A stretch of DNA of 45,512 bases. Origin: a virus. The stretch lies in IMG/VR virus record IMGVR_UViG_3300048837_001975; one strand, 5' to 3'. The stretch's first letter is position 1. Every line of letters begins with the position of its first letter. Below are positions 9,768 through 31,300 of the stretch, in pieces. The notes beneath the pieces were generated by a model. It was not told the origin of the DNA and ran no database searches. It saw nothing but the letters and a program-made list of their open reading frames with translations. The translations under genes and the position numbers were made by a program.

Positions 9768-10955
9768 ATGGTTGCCCAAGAAGCTATTTTTGACACAAGA
9801 GTTGACACAAAGAAATTGTTTGTGTCAGTAAAAACTAAATTCATTCCACGCAGTTATCAAAATAAGGAAGGCCTTTCACTTCTTTATCTACACATTACCG
9901 GTAATCAACAGCGAAATAGAATTCCCCTGGATATATATGTAAGGGTGAAAGATTTTTGCCCGAAAGAGCAAAGGCTAAAGACTACCGATGGCCACTCAAA
10001 GGATCTCAATCTAATTATTGATAACCTGCAGAGTAAAATCACTTCTATTAAAACAACCTATCGACTAGCCAATAAAAAATTGGACGTCGATTCGCTTACT
10101 GAAGAATTTATAAATGGCATTCCACGAATCAATTTTTTTGCATTTGCAGATTGGTTCCTTCAAAAACAAAAAGGACAGCTCGCGAAAGGCACCTATGAAA
10201 AGCAGTATTATATGCTGGAAAAATGGAAACGCTGGAAGAAAACCATTTACTTCACAGAACTTGACCAAAAATTTATCTTGAACTTCCGGCAGTGGATGAA
10301 TAAGCTAGGAAACAATAAAACTACTGTTGAAAGCAATATTGCAACACTAAAAAAGTTTTTAAATGCCGCAAAAAAACACGGGATTTTATTGCCAATTGAT
10401 GTTGATGATATTAAGGTAGGCAGTACCACGGGCAACAGAACGGACTTAAAACCATCTGAGGTAAACCGCCTGTATGAATATTATAAAAGCAGCTTTATAA
10501 ATGACCAGAACCGCCTAGTGCTTGGCTACTTTCTCTTTTCTTGTTTTACTGGGCTTCGTGTTTCCGAAGTATTGTCAATCCATCGCAGTCAATTTGATGA
10601 AGGTTTTTTTGAATATTTTGAAAAGAAAAAAGATAGAATGCAGCGTAGAAACATAAACGAAAGTACCAGGACACTACTTTCTTATTGTGATGGGCTTTTC
10701 ATTGAAAAGAAAGATCCTATCTATATGAACCGTCAAATAAAAATAATAGCCAACACCTGTGGAATAACAAAGAAAATTTCATTCCACGTTGGCCGACATA
10801 CATTTGCTACCAACTTCCTAAGAGCTGGAGGCGATGTAGTATCGCTCCAAAATCTTTTAGGGCACAGCAATATAAAGCAGACTATGATCTACGTTCACAT
10901 TGTGGAGAGCGAGGTAAACGAAAAGGTTTTTATAATAGACAAATTATTCAATTGA
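9768..10955 (+). CDS. int: Tyrosine site-specific integrase
   Basis: Catalytic-domain signatures are TGLRVSEVLSI, HVGRHTFATNFL, LLGHSNIKQTMIYVHI (R...HxxR...H...Y). The N-terminal arm/SAM-like domain is typical of Bacteroidetes phage integrases. Confidence 0.9.
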   Translation: MVAQEAIFDTRVDTKKLFVSVKTKFIPRSYQNKEGLSLLYLHITGNQQRNRIPLDIYVRVKDFCPKEQRLKTTDGHSKDLNLIIDNLQSKITSIKTTYRLANKKLDVDSLTEEFINGIPRINFFAFADWFLQKQKGQLAKGTYEKQYYMLEKWKRWKKTIYFTELDQKFILNFRQWMNKLGNNKTTVESNIATLKKFLNAAKKHGILLPIDVDDIKVGSTTGNRTDLKPSEVNRLYEYYKSSFINDQNRLVLGYFLFSCFTGLRVSEVLSIHRSQFDEGFFEYFEKKKDRMQRRNINESTRTLLSYCDGLFIEKKDPIYMNRQIKIIANTCGITKKISFHVGRHTFATNFLRAGGDVVSLQNLLGHSNIKQTMIYVHIVESEVNEKVFIIDKLFN

Positions 10956-26395: not shown

Positions 26396-26836
26396 ATGGA
26401 AAAATTGAAAGAGGCGAAAGCCACAAACAACAAGAAAAGTGCAACCGCTAAAAACGCAACCGCAAAAGCGGAGCAAAAGCCACAAGCACAAGGAGAACCA
26501 AAAAAGGAAGATGCAAAAAAAGAAGTTGTGCAAAAAGCCACAACCACCATTGACCAAATTTTGAACCCTACTGCAGAAAGCAGAGTTAAAAAACTTGAAA
26601 TCTTTAACAAGTTAGCCGACAAGAAAAACCGCATAGATACGAAACTTGACGAGTTAACGAGTTTCAGAGTTAGCCAGGACGGAACAGAAGCGAAAATGGA
26701 ATTTTCTGCAGGTAACGGTTACCGCTTCAAGATTAGCAACCCTTTAACCATTAACATGCTTTTGGACGTGGTAGAAAAAGAACTTTCAACACTTCAAACG
26801 CAAACAGACAAGGAAATTTTAAATTTTCAAATCTAG
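26396..26836 (+). CDS. Hypothetical protein with a Lys/Ala-rich basic N-terminal tail (146 aa)
   Basis: ATG ORF followed by a clear terminator. The N-terminal 50 aa are low-complexity K/A/E/Q. Confidence 0.6.
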   Translation: MEKLKEAKATNNKKSATAKNATAKAEQKPQAQGEPKKEDAKKEVVQKATTTIDQILNPTAESRVKKLEIFNKLADKKNRIDTKLDELTSFRVSQDGTEAKMEFSAGNGYRFKISNPLTINMLLDVVEKELSTLQTQTDKEILNFQI

Positions 26837-26849
26837 TATTAATCAAAGA

Positions 26850-26884
26850 ACCCCTAAAGCCGTTGCAGGGCGATAGGGGTTTTT
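26850..26884 (+). terminator. Rho-independent terminator
   Basis: ACCCCTA ... TAGGGGT stem followed by TTTT. Confidence 0.7.
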
Positions 26885-26902
26885 ATAACACATTATAGCA
26901 TC

Positions 26903-27130
26903 ATGGAAAACAACACTACAAAGAGCCGTAAAACTAACCCTTTTTTACTTTCCGAGCAAGTTAAAAGCATTCTACAAAAACAGGGTTTTTCGTCAATCTT
27001 CAATTATGACGATTATAATTTTTTTAAAGAGCAATGCAAAAACGCATTCAATAAAGCGCAAGCCATAGCGGAGAAATTCCGAGCGGAAGCAGAACCACAA
27101 AAAAACGATTTCAAAGATTATATTTTTTAA
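26903..27130 (+). CDS. Hypothetical protein (75 aa)
   Basis: ATG ORF on the island strand. Confidence 0.5.
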   Translation: MENNTTKSRKTNPFLLSEQVKSILQKQGFSSIFNYDDYNFFKEQCKNAFNKAQAIAEKFRAEAEPQKNDFKDYIF

Positions 27131-27294
27131 AGGTACACGTGAGCGGGGAGGAATTTTGTATAACGGCTTTTGAGGATGCACCCCGATAACAAAAACCTGA
27201 AAACGCCTACCGTTGAATATTGGTAAGGAATTAGCCGACAGGCGAAACGATACACGCTTCAAAACTTTAATTCCAACACTTTAACACAAATATC

Positions 27295-27669
27295 ATGGAA
27301 ACACAAAGTAAAGAATTAACGCCAGTACAACAGAAACGCCAAGCCTTGAGAGAAATTTCAAAAGTGGCTAAAATGATGCTTCAATCCGAAGCGATGGAAG
27401 AAGAGAACGTTAACGAAATCGTGATTAATCACTTCTACACAAACGACACGCACCAAGAATTTAAAAGCTTCAAAGGTTGGATGAAAGCAGGATTTGCAGT
27501 AAAGAAAGGTGAAAAGGCTTTTTGTATCTGGGGAAAGCCAAGAGATAAAAAAGAAACCGACCCCCAAGAGGAAAACGAGGAACAGGGCAAAAAATCTAAA
27601 TTTTACCCTTTAGCCTACATTTTCAGCAATGCGCAAGTTGAACCCCTAAAAAAGAAAGAAAGTGCCTAA
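27295..27669 (+). CDS. ArdC N-terminal-domain-like (DUF1738) ssDNA-binding protein; lacks the metalloprotease half
   Basis: EFKSFKGWMKAGFAVKKGEKAFCIWGKP ... FYPLAYIFSNAQVEPL matches the ArdC-N pattern (F..W...G..VkKGEKg..i ... vFN..Q). Confidence 0.6.
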   Translation: METQSKELTPVQQKRQALREISKVAKMMLQSEAMEEENVNEIVINHFYTNDTHQEFKSFKGWMKAGFAVKKGEKAFCIWGKPRDKKETDPQEENEEQGKKSKFYPLAYIFSNAQVEPLKKKESA

Positions 27670-28318
27670 AACAAGAGATATACCACAGGATTTGAGGGAA
27701 TTTAATTCCCTCTTTTCCTTTATAGCAATGCGCCACGATGCCGCGCGCGTCTTCGACGATTTTCTAACCCTTGTTATTTGTGTGCTCGCACGACAAACAC
27801 AAGAGGACTGGTACCTCAGTACCATAAGAAAATACAGCGAAGACGAGATAAATAGATTTCCCAAAATGCTGGGCAGTTTGTTCATTATTTATGAAAACGC
27901 CCGCAGAGCGGGAGAATGGACAGACCCTCTCGGCTCTTTTTATGAAGCCATTGCCGGCAACTATAAAAAAAGTGGCCTAGGGCAATTCTTCACTCCTGAA
28001 GCGATTTGCACAATGTGCGCCCAAATGATTATTCCAAAAGGAACTTTCGGAAAGAATATCAACGAACCCACCTGCGGTAGTGGCCGTATGATATTGGCAA
28101 CCCACATACACGCTCCCGGTAACTACTATGTAGCACAGGATATGGACCATATATGCGTGAAAATGACTTGCATAAACTTGGCAATGCACGGCGTAAAGGC
28201 AGAAGTCCATCACATGGACACCCTGCAGAATAATACGCCTTGGAATAGCTACATAATTAACCACGACTATTGGAAAACAAAAACGCCATTCGTCTATAAA
28301 ATCAACGAAGGAGATTAA
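27662..28318 (+). CDS. Truncated HsdM-like (gamma-class N6-adenine MTase-like) SAM-binding protein with degenerate motif IV
   Basis: GQFFTPEAICTMCAQMI (motif X), INEPTCGSGRMIL (motif I), CINLAMHGV ... HMDTL are present. The NPPF/Y position reads IINHDYW, and the protein ends 17 aa later. Confidence 0.65.
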   Translation: MPKTRDIPQDLREFNSLFSFIAMRHDAARVFDDFLTLVICVLARQTQEDWYLSTIRKYSEDEINRFPKMLGSLFIIYENARRAGEWTDPLGSFYEAIAGNYKKSGLGQFFTPEAICTMCAQMIIPKGTFGKNINEPTCGSGRMILATHIHAPGNYYVAQDMDHICVKMTCINLAMHGVKAEVHHMDTLQNNTPWNSYIINHDYWKTKTPFVYKINEGD

Positions 28319-28344
28319 GATCTCCTTTTAGTTGTTTTCCTGAA

Positions 28345-28377
28345 ACGCCTTACGCTGCAATCGTAAGGCGTTTTTTT
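28345..28377. terminator. Bidirectional terminator between convergent genes
   Basis: A 10-bp perfect stem (ACGCCTTACG / CGTAAGGCGT) with T7 on the plus side and an A-run on the other. Confidence 0.75.
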
Positions 28378-28768
28378 ATAATCTATCTATAACATTCTTT
28401 TGAAAAAAATTTCTTTCTCCAAATTCTTCCTTGCACCGTTCATAATGGGAGCGGCTATTAGTGTAATTTTCTCTAGAAGTTAGAAACCATTGACCATCTG
28501 GAATATCTTTGTTTAAAACTAAATCCATTCCTAGATACTTTTCTCCTTCAGCAAATTGCTTAAGCGCAAGAAAATAATCTTCCGGAAGAACCAGAACATT
28601 AATACTTGTATTTTTTCGATACTGTTTTAAAAAGTTGTCTATTTCAATTACTCGAACCGCATTTTGAAATGCCTCGAAAGACATCGCTGGAGTCATAGGG
28701 CGATTGTCTTCATTTAGACAATCATTAAACCCTTTGAAAATTTTGTGTAGATATTTTTTTTCTGCCAT
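28376..28768 (-). CDS. Hypothetical protein (130 aa from MAEKKYL; the track start is 28795)
   Basis: ATG ORF divergent from the 28849 operon, in an AT-rich segment. Confidence 0.5.
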   Translation of the reverse strand: MAEKKYLHKIFKGFNDCLNEDNRPMTPAMSFEAFQNAVRVIEIDNFLKQYRKNTSINVLVLPEDYFLALKQFAEGEKYLGMDLVLNKDIPDGQWFLTSRENYTNSRSHYERCKEEFGERNFFQKNVIDRL

Positions 28769-28848
28769 ACCCAAAAATACAAAATATGCGCACATCTGTT
28801 ACATTTTCATTACAATTGTGCGTACAATTTTTTGATTATCTTTGAATT

Positions 28849-29268
28849 ATGGAAAAATTTATATTCAACGACAACGAAGTTTCCTTAGATTCAAAAAAAT
28901 TTAATGATTCTTTATTTTTGGACCAAAAAAAATATAAATCTCCATTTCTTATAAAATTAGACCACGAAGAAATAAAGCAAGTTGAAAAATCTTGGCTTGA
29001 AAAATTTCAGAAGGATGATTACACTTCTTTTATACAACGCTTGATCATTGAACAAAAGGATAAATTTGTAAAAATGGTAGCTAACAAATTCATCCCAGGT
29101 TTTGATTCTGAAAAAATTGAAGAATCTTATATTAAAGAAACTTCAAATTTATTTGATTTTCTTTTAGTCTATGACGAAGAAGTAATTGGTCGCGTCATCG
29201 GCAACTTTGATATGGAAGGAAGAGGACAAAATTTAAACTTTAATTTTACCGGAACACCAGGATTATGA
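28849..29268 (+). CDS. Hypothetical protein (139 aa)
   Basis: ATG ORF with a 4-nt ATGA overlap to the next gene. Lys/Glu/Phe-rich and AT-rich coding. Confidence 0.55.
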   Translation: MEKFIFNDNEVSLDSKKFNDSLFLDQKKYKSPFLIKLDHEEIKQVEKSWLEKFQKDDYTSFIQRLIIEQKDKFVKMVANKFIPGFDSEKIEESYIKETSNLFDFLLVYDEEVIGRVIGNFDMEGRGQNLNFNFTGTPGL

Positions 29269-29615
29269 ATAAACCAGCAGAACACACCCCAATGAAGTAT
29301 GAATATAACGAAGACGGAAGCCTTCGGTCAATTTCTGCTGAAATTATTACCGATAGGGTAAGAAGCAAACTTATTGCTCAGGGAACGCATCCCGAAGTAG
29401 CTGATTTTGTAGAAGAAAATTTTCTTGCATTAAATAGTTTGCATTATTCAGACAACAAAATTAATCCAAATTTTCTGTTTGCAGGAGAAAGAATAACAAA
29501 ATCTGCAGCTGAAAAAATAGCTTATTTAAGACAATTTTTAAAGCCAAACGAAAGCTTGGCTTATATTTTTGAAGGTTGTGATCGGTTTATTGGTCCTCAA
29601 TTTAAAAAAGAATAA
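29265..29615 (+). CDS. Hypothetical protein (116 aa)
   Basis: ATG ORF translationally coupled to 28849-29268. It ends 2 nt before the convergent TerL stop. Confidence 0.55.
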   Translation: MNKPAEHTPMKYEYNEDGSLRSISAEIITDRVRSKLIAQGTHPEVADFVEENFLALNSLHYSDNKINPNFLFAGERITKSAAEKIAYLRQFLKPNESLAYIFEGCDRFIGPQFKKE

Positions 29616-29617
29616 CC

Positions 29618-31300
29618 CTACATCCCATCCAGCGCAGTAATAATAACGCTGCGTTTTCTTTTGGCCATATTTGCCCATTTTTTACGGTACATCAAATACT
29701 TAAAGGTATCACCCATATTTGTAGAGTTCATTGGCAGTTGGAAAAGCGGTAAACCTTCGCTGCTTTTATTTTTATAGATCTGCACACTTCCTTTTTTGTC
29801 CCGCTTCTGAAGAATTTTTGTAAGCTCCAGCGACGATTTCAATTCACGGCATTGGTAAACGTCTATCAATAATTTCGGCAAGCCTTCCATTTGCCCGGAA
29901 AGAACATTTTTCATAAAATAGTATTCCTCACTTTGGTAAATGGTAGCCTGGTCACGGCTCATTAAATTCACCGTCCAGCCGGTACGGTTTCCGGATGAAT
30001 CTATTTCAATACAATCCTTCAGTTCTGCAGCCCACGAACGGCCACTACTTTCGTATTGGTTCCCGCTCCTGTCGTAATACATATTCAAAACCTTCCGTTT
30101 GTGGGGCTTAAAAAACTTTATAAAATGATCACCCATTTCGCGCGAGCTCTCCGGCGCCAGTTTATAAATATTCTTCAGACATCTAAATTCCTTGCCGCGC
30201 TCCTGGGCAATTACCATACTCAGCATTCGCCCAAAATCGATACCGCAATCCAATTCAGCATTGGGATCCAGGTACCGCAAAATATTACAGTTCGCTTCTT
30301 CGTGAAGCCCAAGGGAATGATCATAATTTTCATTGATACCATCCCTATAAAAATGGTCCTCACTCAATCCGGAATAAAACTTCTCGCCATCTTCCACGCC
30401 GCCCTTTATGGAAAGAACGCTTTGCTTGAATTCTTCCCATCCCAAAGTGTTGAGCAGATCCTTCAACACTTCCGGAGTAAGCACGTCTATATTGGTAAAG
30501 GAAGATGCCACAATAAAATAAGAAAGGTTTTTCCGAACCCGCAACCAGTCAGCGTATAGCCGTGCCCTGGCTCTAATAAGCTTCCTCACTTCCGCTTTAT
30601 TCTTATTTTTTAAGGCGTTGGCGAGTTTCATTTCATTCTGATAGTAAAAGTAGCCGCAGTAATAGGCCACTTTTGCCTGCTCCAAATTCATATTTTTCCG
30701 AAGCTCCAGCACCCAAGGATCATCGCCTTTTCCCAAGTTGGGTAAATCGGTAGTAAAACAGGTACCGCGGTAGTATGCGGAATGCTGGTACATATTGAAA
30801 CCACGCAATGCCGGCAGGATGATATCCACTTTTGACTTGCCAATGTATTTTACTTCATCCGCCCCAATGTATTGGTACGAGTTCCCCGCAAGTCCGGAAA
30901 CCTCATTTGCGGAACCAATGATGATGGCAGCGCCGTCGCGATGATAAATTGTTTTTTTCCAGTTTTCTACAGGAATGTAGGGCTTTGCGAAATACTTTGG
31001 CGGCGGCTCCCCCTTTACGTAGTCAATGCCATACTTCCAATCGCGAAACTCTCTCCAGCCGGTTTCCAAACCTGGTACCAAGTTTGTCCTGGCATTTTCA
31101 TACGTATTACAAAAAAACATCTGCAGACTCCGGGGCATTTCAATTAAAGCTTCCTGAAAGCGCTCGGCGTGGATTGCGGTCGTTTTACTCGTTCCACGCC
31201 CGGCAATTACCTGCAGATCCTTTGGAGCGATGTACGCAATAGCCTGGCTAAGCCAATTGGCATAGCGAACTTCTACAAGCGGATCGTTTTTTGTTATCAT
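29618..31300 (-). CDS. terL: Terminase large subunit
   Basis: N-terminal Walker A (VIAGRGTSKTT). Size of 560 aa and a two-domain ATPase + nuclease-like layout. TerS-like HTH gene upstream. Confidence 0.8.
   Translation of the reverse strand: MITKNDPLVEVRYANWLSQAIAYIAPKDLQVIAGRGTSKTTAIHAERFQEALIEMPRSLQMFFCNTYENARTNLVPGLETGWREFRDWKYGIDYVKGEPPPKYFAKPYIPVENWKKTIYHRDGAAIIIGSANEVSGLAGNSYQYIGADEVKYIGKSKVDIILPALRGFNMYQHSAYYRGTCFTTDLPNLGKGDDPWVLELRKNMNLEQAKVAYYCGYFYYQNEMKLANALKNKNKAEVRKLIRARARLYADWLRVRKNLSYFIVASSFTNIDVLTPEVLKDLLNTLGWEEFKQSVLSIKGGVEDGEKFYSGLSEDHFYRDGINENYDHSLGLHEEANCNILRYLDPNAELDCGIDFGRMLSMVIAQERGKEFRCLKNIYKLAPESSREMGDHFIKFFKPHKRKVLNMYYDRSGNQYESSGRSWAAELKDCIEIDSSGNRTGWTVNLMSRDQATIYQSEEYYFMKNVLSGQMEGLPKLLIDVYQCRELKSSLELTKILQKRDKKGSVQIYKNKSSEGLPLFQLPMNSTNMGDTFKYLMYRKKWANMAKRKRSVIITALDGM

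Follow-up and report, generated by a model that had tools for sequence, protein, structure and literature searches.

The gene pair

This report concerns two overlapping genes, here called ORF1 and ORF2, in the IMG/VR virus record IMGVR_UViG_3300048837_001975, and the family of short methyltransferase-like proteins to which ORF2 belongs. The window, by which we mean the whole stretch of 45,512 nucleotides (nt), is the genome of a temperate siphovirus-like phage of the Flavobacteriaceae type. Its genes are nearly all on the minus strand, and the two genes of interest are the last of four open reading frames (ORFs of 146 amino acids (aa), 75 aa, ORF1 and ORF2) in a plus-strand island at 26396-28318. 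An initial annotation, made from the sequence alone, had described two overlapping plus-strand genes in an opposite-strand island, and this is borne out by the coordinates, by the overlap of 8 nt and by the extent of the island; all of the peptides that it quoted are present in the two proteins. The features at this end of the island are:

27295-27669, plus strand: ORF1, 124 aa, a predicted stand-alone ArdC-N-type domain (core at about aa 50-118) behind an N-terminal helix
27662-28318, plus strand: ORF2, 218 aa with a GTG start, an HsdM-derived half-methyltransferase
27662-27669, plus strand: the 8-nt overlap of the ORF1 stop with the ORF2 GTG, seen in the sequence and read as translational coupling
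28342-28374, plus strand: intrinsic terminator ending the island, with a 13-bp stem and a T-run

Overlaps of 4-8 nt are seen again in related loci, and homologues of ORF2 open with the same peptide, MPKT.DIP, for which reason we regard the GTG start as sound. The same overlapping pair is found in the same place in Flavobacterium phage vB_FspS_laban6-1, as gp26 (annotated as an ssDNA-binding domain protein, ssDNA being single-stranded DNA) and gp27 (annotated 'N-6 DNA methylase').

ORF1 and ArdC

ORF1 contains the peptides FKGWMKAGFAVKKGEKAFCIWG and YIFSNAQVEPL, and its sole Pfam match is to ArdcN, at 27.8 bits against a cut-off of 22.6 (E=3e-6). The AlphaFold2 (AF2) model has a predicted local distance difference test score (pLDDT) of 78, and the top PDB folds found with it are those of ArdC of R388, 6i89 and 6sna (probabilities 0.98 and 0.95, with weak E values of about 0.02), followed by the BHDs of Rad4/XPC, which are derived from ArdC-N (Krishnan et al., PMC6222260). 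A profile search against the PDB sequences did not recover ArdC, which was found, weakly, by the fold search alone. The Pfam score and the fold search together give modest support for ORF1 being an ArdC-N ssDNA-binding domain. Its homologues (n=39) are of 111-170 aa.

The likeness to ArdC (R388, pSa; 6i89, 6sna) is thus in the ArdC-N domain only. ArdC has in addition a C-terminal zincin metalloprotease, and this second domain is absent by Pfam from the 124 aa of ORF1, as the initial annotation had observed, so that ORF1 is not itself an ArdC protein; the partner of its ArdC-N domain is instead a half-methylase encoded by the overlapping gene. ArdC counters type I restriction during conjugation, according to a source that cites González-Montes et al. 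2020.

ORF2, one half of an HsdM-type methyltransferase

ORF2 matches the Pfam family N6_Mtase (PF02384) with E=1e-13, the match covering only positions 4-120 of the 311 in the profile. Its motifs are as follows, with the number of family sequences, of 263, that have the residue concerned, and with SAM standing for S-adenosylmethionine:

27749-27766, plus strand: VFDDFL, a family-specific helix of the N-terminal domain (F31 240/263, D33 243/263)
27923-27997, plus strand: DPLGSFYE...GQFFTP, the helix before motif X and motif X itself (methionine end of the SAM pocket), aligning to HsdM (D88 262/263, G91 262/263, Q108 261/263, F110 262/263, P112 260/263)
28064-28087, plus strand: motif I, EPTCGSGR, the glycine loop after beta1 ([DE]135 260/263, G139 261/263, S140 259/263, R142 260/263)
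28130-28147, plus strand: motif II, VAQDMD, with the acidic residue at the end of beta2 (D160 261/263), aligning with the E of GQE in EcoR124I HsdM, where the ribose of SAM is bound
28208-28225, plus strand: motif III, HHMDTL ([D/N]186 261/263, L188 245/263), aligning with GNTL of EcoR124I HsdM
28253-28270, plus strand: degenerate motif IV, IINHDY instead of NPP[YF], NHDY being aa 200-203, with the stop 15 residues on

In the protein GQFFTP is at aa 107-112, EPTCGSGR at 135-142, HHMDTL at 183-188 and IINHDY at 198-203, and the peptide INLAMHG is also present. With regard to the features that define gamma-class methyltransferases, ORF2 has the SAM-pocket motifs X and I, the acidic residue of motif II and the (D/N)xL of motif III, but has neither the (D/N/S)PP(Y/F/W) of motif IV nor the seven-stranded fold with motifs V-VIII. 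The AF2 model (pLDDT 92.9, predicted template modelling (TM) score 0.91) has a helical N-terminal domain and only five strands, beta1-beta4 and one extra. The extent of the Pfam match and the five strands agree with the initial reading of ORF2 as an HsdM-type protein in which the SAM motifs are kept while PP[YF] and everything downstream are gone. The stop had been placed 17 residues after NHDY rather than 15, and the term 'truncated' used for the protein is misleading, as the family is a large one in which the short form is conserved.

The family profile of ORF2 matches HsdM chains in the PDB over HsdM residues from about 150 to 290, that is the helix before motif X and motifs X, I, II and III, and over this stretch ORF2 is homologous to HsdM of EcoR124I (7bst), EcoKI (2ar0) and S. 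thermophilus (3lkd). The helices at the N-terminus could represent an HsdM_N domain in reduced form, the similarity being weak. The differences from HsdM are substantial: ORF2 has 218 aa against about 500, NHDY for NPP[YF], and lacks motifs V-VIII, strands beta5-7 and the C-terminal helical region. The best PDB matches to the model as a whole, HsdM and lmo1582, have TM-scores of 0.45-0.48 (only 0.45 for HsdM 3lkd), and the fold search found no solved structure that matches ORF2 over its entire length; in BFVD the model matches a 226-aa viral protein with a TM-score of 0.77. There is no hsdS partner, fused target recognition domain or hsdR in the island or its flanks. With motif IV, motifs V-VIII and a specificity element all lacking, ORF2 falls outside the DNA methyltransferases as a class. 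PADLOC and NCBIfam gave partial matches of ORF2 to mad2 and to type I and II methylases only, and no pointer to a specific target system.

A large family of half-methyltransferases

ORF2 matches PHROG 5696 from end to end (E=3e-34, positions 21-225 of 250), to which no function is assigned, and it has the markers of the short half-N6_Mtase family, namely the FDDFL helix, GSGR and a C-x-KM-x3-N helix. Among its homologues (n=133) the close ones are all of 214-219 aa and the distant ones of 240-290 aa, and length holds even where identity has fallen to about 50%. When 1.84 billion representatives were searched with a profile, 881 clusters (formed at 50% identity) had E<=1e-30; the best 150 of these are nearly all of about 170-335 aa with three of 400-506 aa, and the second methylase half is present in none of the 150. 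The family is very large and specific to mobile elements, and is derived from the type I methylase subunit HsdM. It has lost the second half of the Rossmann fold, and with it the target-base pocket, the DNA-recognition elements and the HsdS-binding tail; PP[YF] and strands beta5-7 are missing from all of the members that were examined.

The half that remains is strongly conserved. Motifs X, I, II and III of the SAM pocket are conserved at 95% or more in the 263 sequences, and Q108, F110, G139 and S140 at 98% or more. Near-invariant residues are D88, G91, Q108, F110, T111, P112, [DE]135, G139, S140, G141, R142, D160, D162, N172, [DN]186 and L188, and there are in addition the conserved family-specific residues F31, D33, Y58, C165 and M168. 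In the case of motif IV, N200 is kept in 196 of the 263 (75%), but the PP[YF] consensus is gone and the positions behind N200 are variable or gapped: position 201 is P in 71, H in 38 and Y in 22, and position 202 is mostly a gap, then D. Because lengths and SAM-pocket residues are conserved while the PP[YF] consensus is lost, it appears that selection maintains a SAM-binding half-domain without the canonical catalytic and target-binding half.

A clade of Ala/Arg/Gly/Pro-rich proteins (P0226 of 400 aa, P0227, P0231, P0235 and P0290) has a conserved [IV]PDLF behind the half-methylase and, further on, additional domains at the C-terminus: P0226 has MutS_I there, and P0231 and P0235 have Cys-rich segments that resemble zinc ribbons. 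Several of the proteins end in ...AA. In P0226, P0227, P0231 and P0290 the extra stretch at the N-terminus seems to come from a start called too far upstream.

Two alternative putative tethers to DNA

The QLxLF-type pentapeptide is the consensus binding motif for the beta sliding clamp. The longer relatives of ORF2 have a variable low-complexity linker followed by a terminal QL[STKN]LF (QLTLF, QLSLF, QLKLF and similar), and a clamp motif ending at most 5 residues from the C-terminus is present in 117 of 262 family proteins (about 45%), against 0.3 expected from the rate in protein interiors. Examples are P0084, P0094 and P0162-P0301, and the copies at L019-L081, as at L027:4001-4816 and L031:4001-4861. 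The Enterococcus copy ends EQLALF and a Bacteroides plasmid copy QLTFDF, and in enterobacterial plasmid copies a clamp-like motif (MAQMSLFD, MSQLSF) is N-terminal (L087:6902-7687, Pectobacterium pPAR01; L089:7980-8810, Klebsiella pNDM1_015096). The 117 relatives have at their extreme terminus the same pentapeptide as the beta-clamp clients with QL[SD]LF, which include Pol IV, UmuC, MutS, Hda and IS transposases (PMC4549789), and binding of these relatives to DnaN is predicted from the motif. ORF2 differs from the clamp clients in having no such motif: it ends ...TPFVYKINEGD, without a clamp-binding pentapeptide, and there is none in ORF1 either.

The subfamily of ORF2 as a whole has no clamp tail and has instead an ArdC-N gene directly upstream, so that in the case of ORF2 the tether typical of the family would be provided by the overlapping ORF1. 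At 55 non-redundant IMG/VR loci, which are not phylogenetically independent and were scored with an ArdC-N hidden Markov model biased to the subfamily, there is a clamp tail only at 17, a short ArdC-N neighbour only at 21, neither at 16 and both at 1 (Fisher p=2.8e-4). The single locus with both, L017, has a doubtful motif, QLELL, which is not strictly terminal. The clamp tail and the short ArdC-N neighbour are thus almost mutually exclusive, and on a rough neighbour-joining tree there are at least 6-7 switches of each state. By Pfam, two full-length ArdC genes adjoin clamp-tail copies. No natural fusion of ArdC-N to the half-methylase is present among the top 150 representatives.

From these patterns a putative DNA-tethering device, be it an ArdC-N partner, a terminal clamp motif or, in one protein, MutS-I, seems to be the usual companion of the half-domain. 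The pattern therefore favours action on ssDNA or replication intermediates over that of a free cytoplasmic decoy or SAM sponge.

Two further observations relate to these groups. A second ArdC-N-linked subgroup (L020, L022, L025, L030, L055) has another conserved C-terminal tail, F[VI]R[FY], as in NFVRYTPKC and GFIRFKVKA. Many clamp-tail copies have 5' of them a co-oriented ORF of 211-242 aa (L019:3318-3998, L023:3283-3963, L026:3230-3940, L027:3318-4001, L029:3267-3962, L046:3270-3998, L049:3330-3965), which could be a further partner; the five of these that were tested had no PHROG match, and a pooled Pfam scan of the neighbours gave no recurrent family.

Genomic context on phages and plasmids

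Relatives number at least 512 in IMG/VR, and with a proteobacterial plasmid member as query they were found on 2,139 plasmids, 1,481 of them conjugative. In Pectobacterium pPAR01 and Klebsiella IncFII/FIB pNDM1_015096 the homologue is in the leading region among antirestriction, PsiB, PsiA, ParB and DUF1380 genes. In the latter the homologue, WP_008324171, is about 2 kb from traM. The Enterococcus homologue is near ssb and a JAB/RadC gene, and the Bacteroides homologue adjoins an LPD28 protein with SSB a few kilobases off. On phages the neighbours include RadC, ArdC or ArdC-N, SymE-like, DUF4121, DUF932, ParB and SNF2 genes, and some copies belong to modules for replication or early functions, along with genes for SNF2, AAA_24, RNase_T and primase. 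The suggestion in the initial annotation of a counter-defence role is in keeping with such company, that is antirestriction, PsiB, SSB and ParB genes in plasmid leading regions and RadC, ArdC and SymE-like genes in phage islands.

The F-plasmid leading region also includes a gene annotated 'DNA methylase', which we take to be YubD. Identity with this gene was ruled out, as its product is an N6_N4_Mtase protein without similarity to ORF2. A gene family with the same annotations as ours is present in the supplement of Samuel et al. 2024, in the table cited for the leading-region enrichment test, and their main text handles leading-region methylases as orphan methyltransferases.

Proposed function

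We rate ORF2 as a pseudo-enzyme derivative of HsdM coupled to a DNA-tethering device. In general terms the protein would be a tethered, non-catalytic, SAM-binding derivative of HsdM that acts on ssDNA or replication intermediates in establishment or counter-defence, and we put the chances of this being correct at about even. ORF1 and ORF2 would form a translationally coupled two-gene accessory module of the phage, in which ORF1 would bind ssDNA and deliver ORF2 to single-stranded or replicating phage DNA. SAM-bound ORF2 would then act non-catalytically and in cis on replicating or entering DNA, and the complex of the two would protect or establish the DNA of the element. The most plausible route would be interference with restriction machines that depend on SAM and have a subunit of the HsdM type (type I, BREX, MADS-like). 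In this last step, in which ORF2 would serve as a specific decoy, we have much less confidence than in the general proposal.

Extended to the family, the proposal is that half-methyltransferases tethered to ssDNA (by ArdC-N) or to the sliding clamp (by QLxLF) are a new and very widespread class of effectors that are SAM-dependent without being catalytic and serve in establishment or anti-restriction, common to phages and conjugative plasmids, including IncF-type resistance plasmids of Klebsiella and Enterobacter, and protecting newly entered or newly replicated DNA in cis. This is put forward tentatively, and the balance is somewhat against its being right in full.

Several points weigh against the proposal. 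Binding of SAM by ORF2 is predicted, with motif conservation as the whole basis, and the complex of ORF1 with ORF2 is suggested by the gene overlap and the complementary pattern of the two tethers. Neither tether is present at 16 of the 55 loci, and the counts at these loci are the ones noted above as lacking phylogenetic independence. N200 is often followed by an aromatic residue three residues later, and residual base binding or catalysis is thus possible. The phage of the window injects double-stranded DNA, so the relevant ssDNA stage is assumed to come in replication or recombination. Finally, the naming of HsdR, HsdM or PglX as the target of interference is pure conjecture.

Alternative explanations

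The alternative that stands up best, and one we regard as unlikely but worth keeping in mind, is that ORF2 is a minimal active ssDNA-specific N6-adenine methyltransferase, in which the target-recognition half is dispensable as bases in ssDNA need no flipping, and to which ArdC-N or the clamp presents the ssDNA. The fully conserved SAM pocket would be expected of an enzyme, N200 is kept in three quarters of members and often as N-x-x-[YFW], and a tether to ssDNA or the clamp would suit a replication-coupled ssDNA enzyme. However, no class I methyltransferase whose Rossmann fold amounts to only about 95 residues is known to be active. PP[YF] is gone in the family with the positions behind N200 variable or gapped, more distant members have an aliphatic residue after N-x-x, and motifs V-VIII and strands beta5-7 are missing. 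There is a precedent of a kind in M.EcoGIX and M.BceJIII, ssDNA-specific and replisome-dependent orphan methylases encoded in leading regions (PMC7736820), which resemble the present family, as we picture it, in serving the establishment of mobile elements and in acting on ssDNA with a functional link to the replisome, and plasmid relatives of ORF2 are in the same leading regions. These are nevertheless complete, catalytically proven beta-class N6_N4 methylases, the family to which the F-plasmid 'DNA methylase', unrelated to ORF2, also belongs, and ORF2 is a gamma-class fragment without the catalytic motif.

A little less probable again is a role in replication or repair rather than defence, with the tethered domain competing with host clamp clients (MutS/MutL, Hda, polymerases) or coupling replication of the element to SAM levels. 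It would account for the canonical clamp-binding motifs and the one MutS-I fusion, and for those copies that are placed with replication or early genes of phages. On the other side, a plug for the clamp and nothing more would have no need of a SAM pocket kept at 95% or more, the subfamily present in the window has no clamp motif at all, and the recurrent neighbours are classical anti-restriction or establishment genes.

We think it improbable that ORF2 acts in free form, as a sponge for SAM or as a soluble HsdM decoy by which HsdS or HsdR would be titrated throughout the cytoplasm, although its conserved SAM motifs and its homology to HsdM speak for this. Cellular SAM is abundant and a stoichiometric binder would be a poor sink for it, which makes the SAM sequestration put forward in the initial annotation implausible. 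It is the C-terminal region of HsdM that binds HsdS, and that region is absent from ORF2. The family-wide DNA or clamp tether also favours local action on DNA. Phages are known to deal with SAM enzymatically, by SAM lyases (PMC7877911).

There is next to no likelihood that ORF2 is a decaying remnant or frameshift artefact of a full-length methylase, as its partial Pfam match might suggest, since the family is very large and of the same length even at about 50% identity, the AF2 model gives a compact fold with high confidence, laban6-1 has the pair in synteny, and the terminator and then a converging minus-strand ORF directly downstream leave no room for a frameshifted continuation.

Comparison with other known systems

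The proposed tethered half-domain may also be compared with the DarB-type methylase-SNF2 module of polyvalent proteins (Iyer et al. 2017, PMC5512222), with which it shares the neighbouring or fused domains ArdC-N, RadC, ParB, SNF2, LPD and MutS-I. Some relatives of ORF2 are directly behind an SNF2 helicase that matches the DarB-like PHROG 62. The DarB-type proteins are large and have a complete methylase, and it is only complete methylase-helicase modules that Iyer et al. describe, whereas ORF2 is a solo half-domain of a kind not covered there. The loci with an SNF2 helicase gene directly upstream of the half-methylase are L063:2304-3986 and L067:2313-3986, the copy at L063 being one that matches PHROG 62, and their arrangement resembles a split and degenerate form of the polyvalent methylase-helicase dyad.

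Non-catalytic methyltransferase paralogues such as METTL14 and DNMT3L keep the fold as a binding or scaffolding module. They differ from ORF2 in having a complete fold and an active paralogue as partner; ORF2 has half of the fold, and no active partner is encoded nearby.

The initial annotation had stated that the architecture was not known to have been characterised. This holds in that we found no characterising paper, and in the literature no description of the short half-methylase family or of its clamp motif, but the architecture is not a one-off, as it belongs to a very large family that is routinely labelled 'N-6 DNA methylase' in RefSeq.

Implications for annotation

Thousands of genes of the family have this label in databases, and surveys of leading regions count that label as orphan methylases. 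On the present evidence, family members cannot be canonical methylases. We suggest that, at the least, the annotation be changed and the family be left out of methylome predictions. If the members are indeed DNA-tethered pseudo-enzymes that aid establishment, they would point to an unstudied step common to phage infection and conjugation; on clinical IncF plasmids homologues are found about 2 kb from oriT. The family would also be directly open to test, since mutations can be made in the clamp motif, in the ArdC-N partner and in the SAM pocket.

Other features of the window

The phage is taken to be temperate because it encodes a tyrosine-type integrase. The remaining features to be noted are:

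9768-10955, plus strand: integrase, tyrosine-type (PHROG 1, E=2e-38), in a separate plus-strand island
26396-27130, plus strand: the two co-oriented island genes 5' of ORF1, of 146 aa (phrog_19224) and 75 aa (phrog_21262), with no function assigned by PHROG, syntenic with laban6-1 gp23/gp24
29618-31300, minus strand: terminase large subunit

The terminator at 28342-28374, a strong hairpin, is between ORF2 and the minus-strand ORF at 28376-28795, which converge on it, and is probably active in both directions. Two overlapping ORFs of 139 and 116 aa, neither with a Pfam or PHROG match, make up another small plus-strand island at 28849-29615, directly before the terminase gene. The 146-aa protein of the main island has an N-terminus rich in Lys, Ala and Glu. 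In relatives of this island, SymE-like or RadC genes are inserted between the 146-aa and 75-aa genes and the ArdC-N gene.

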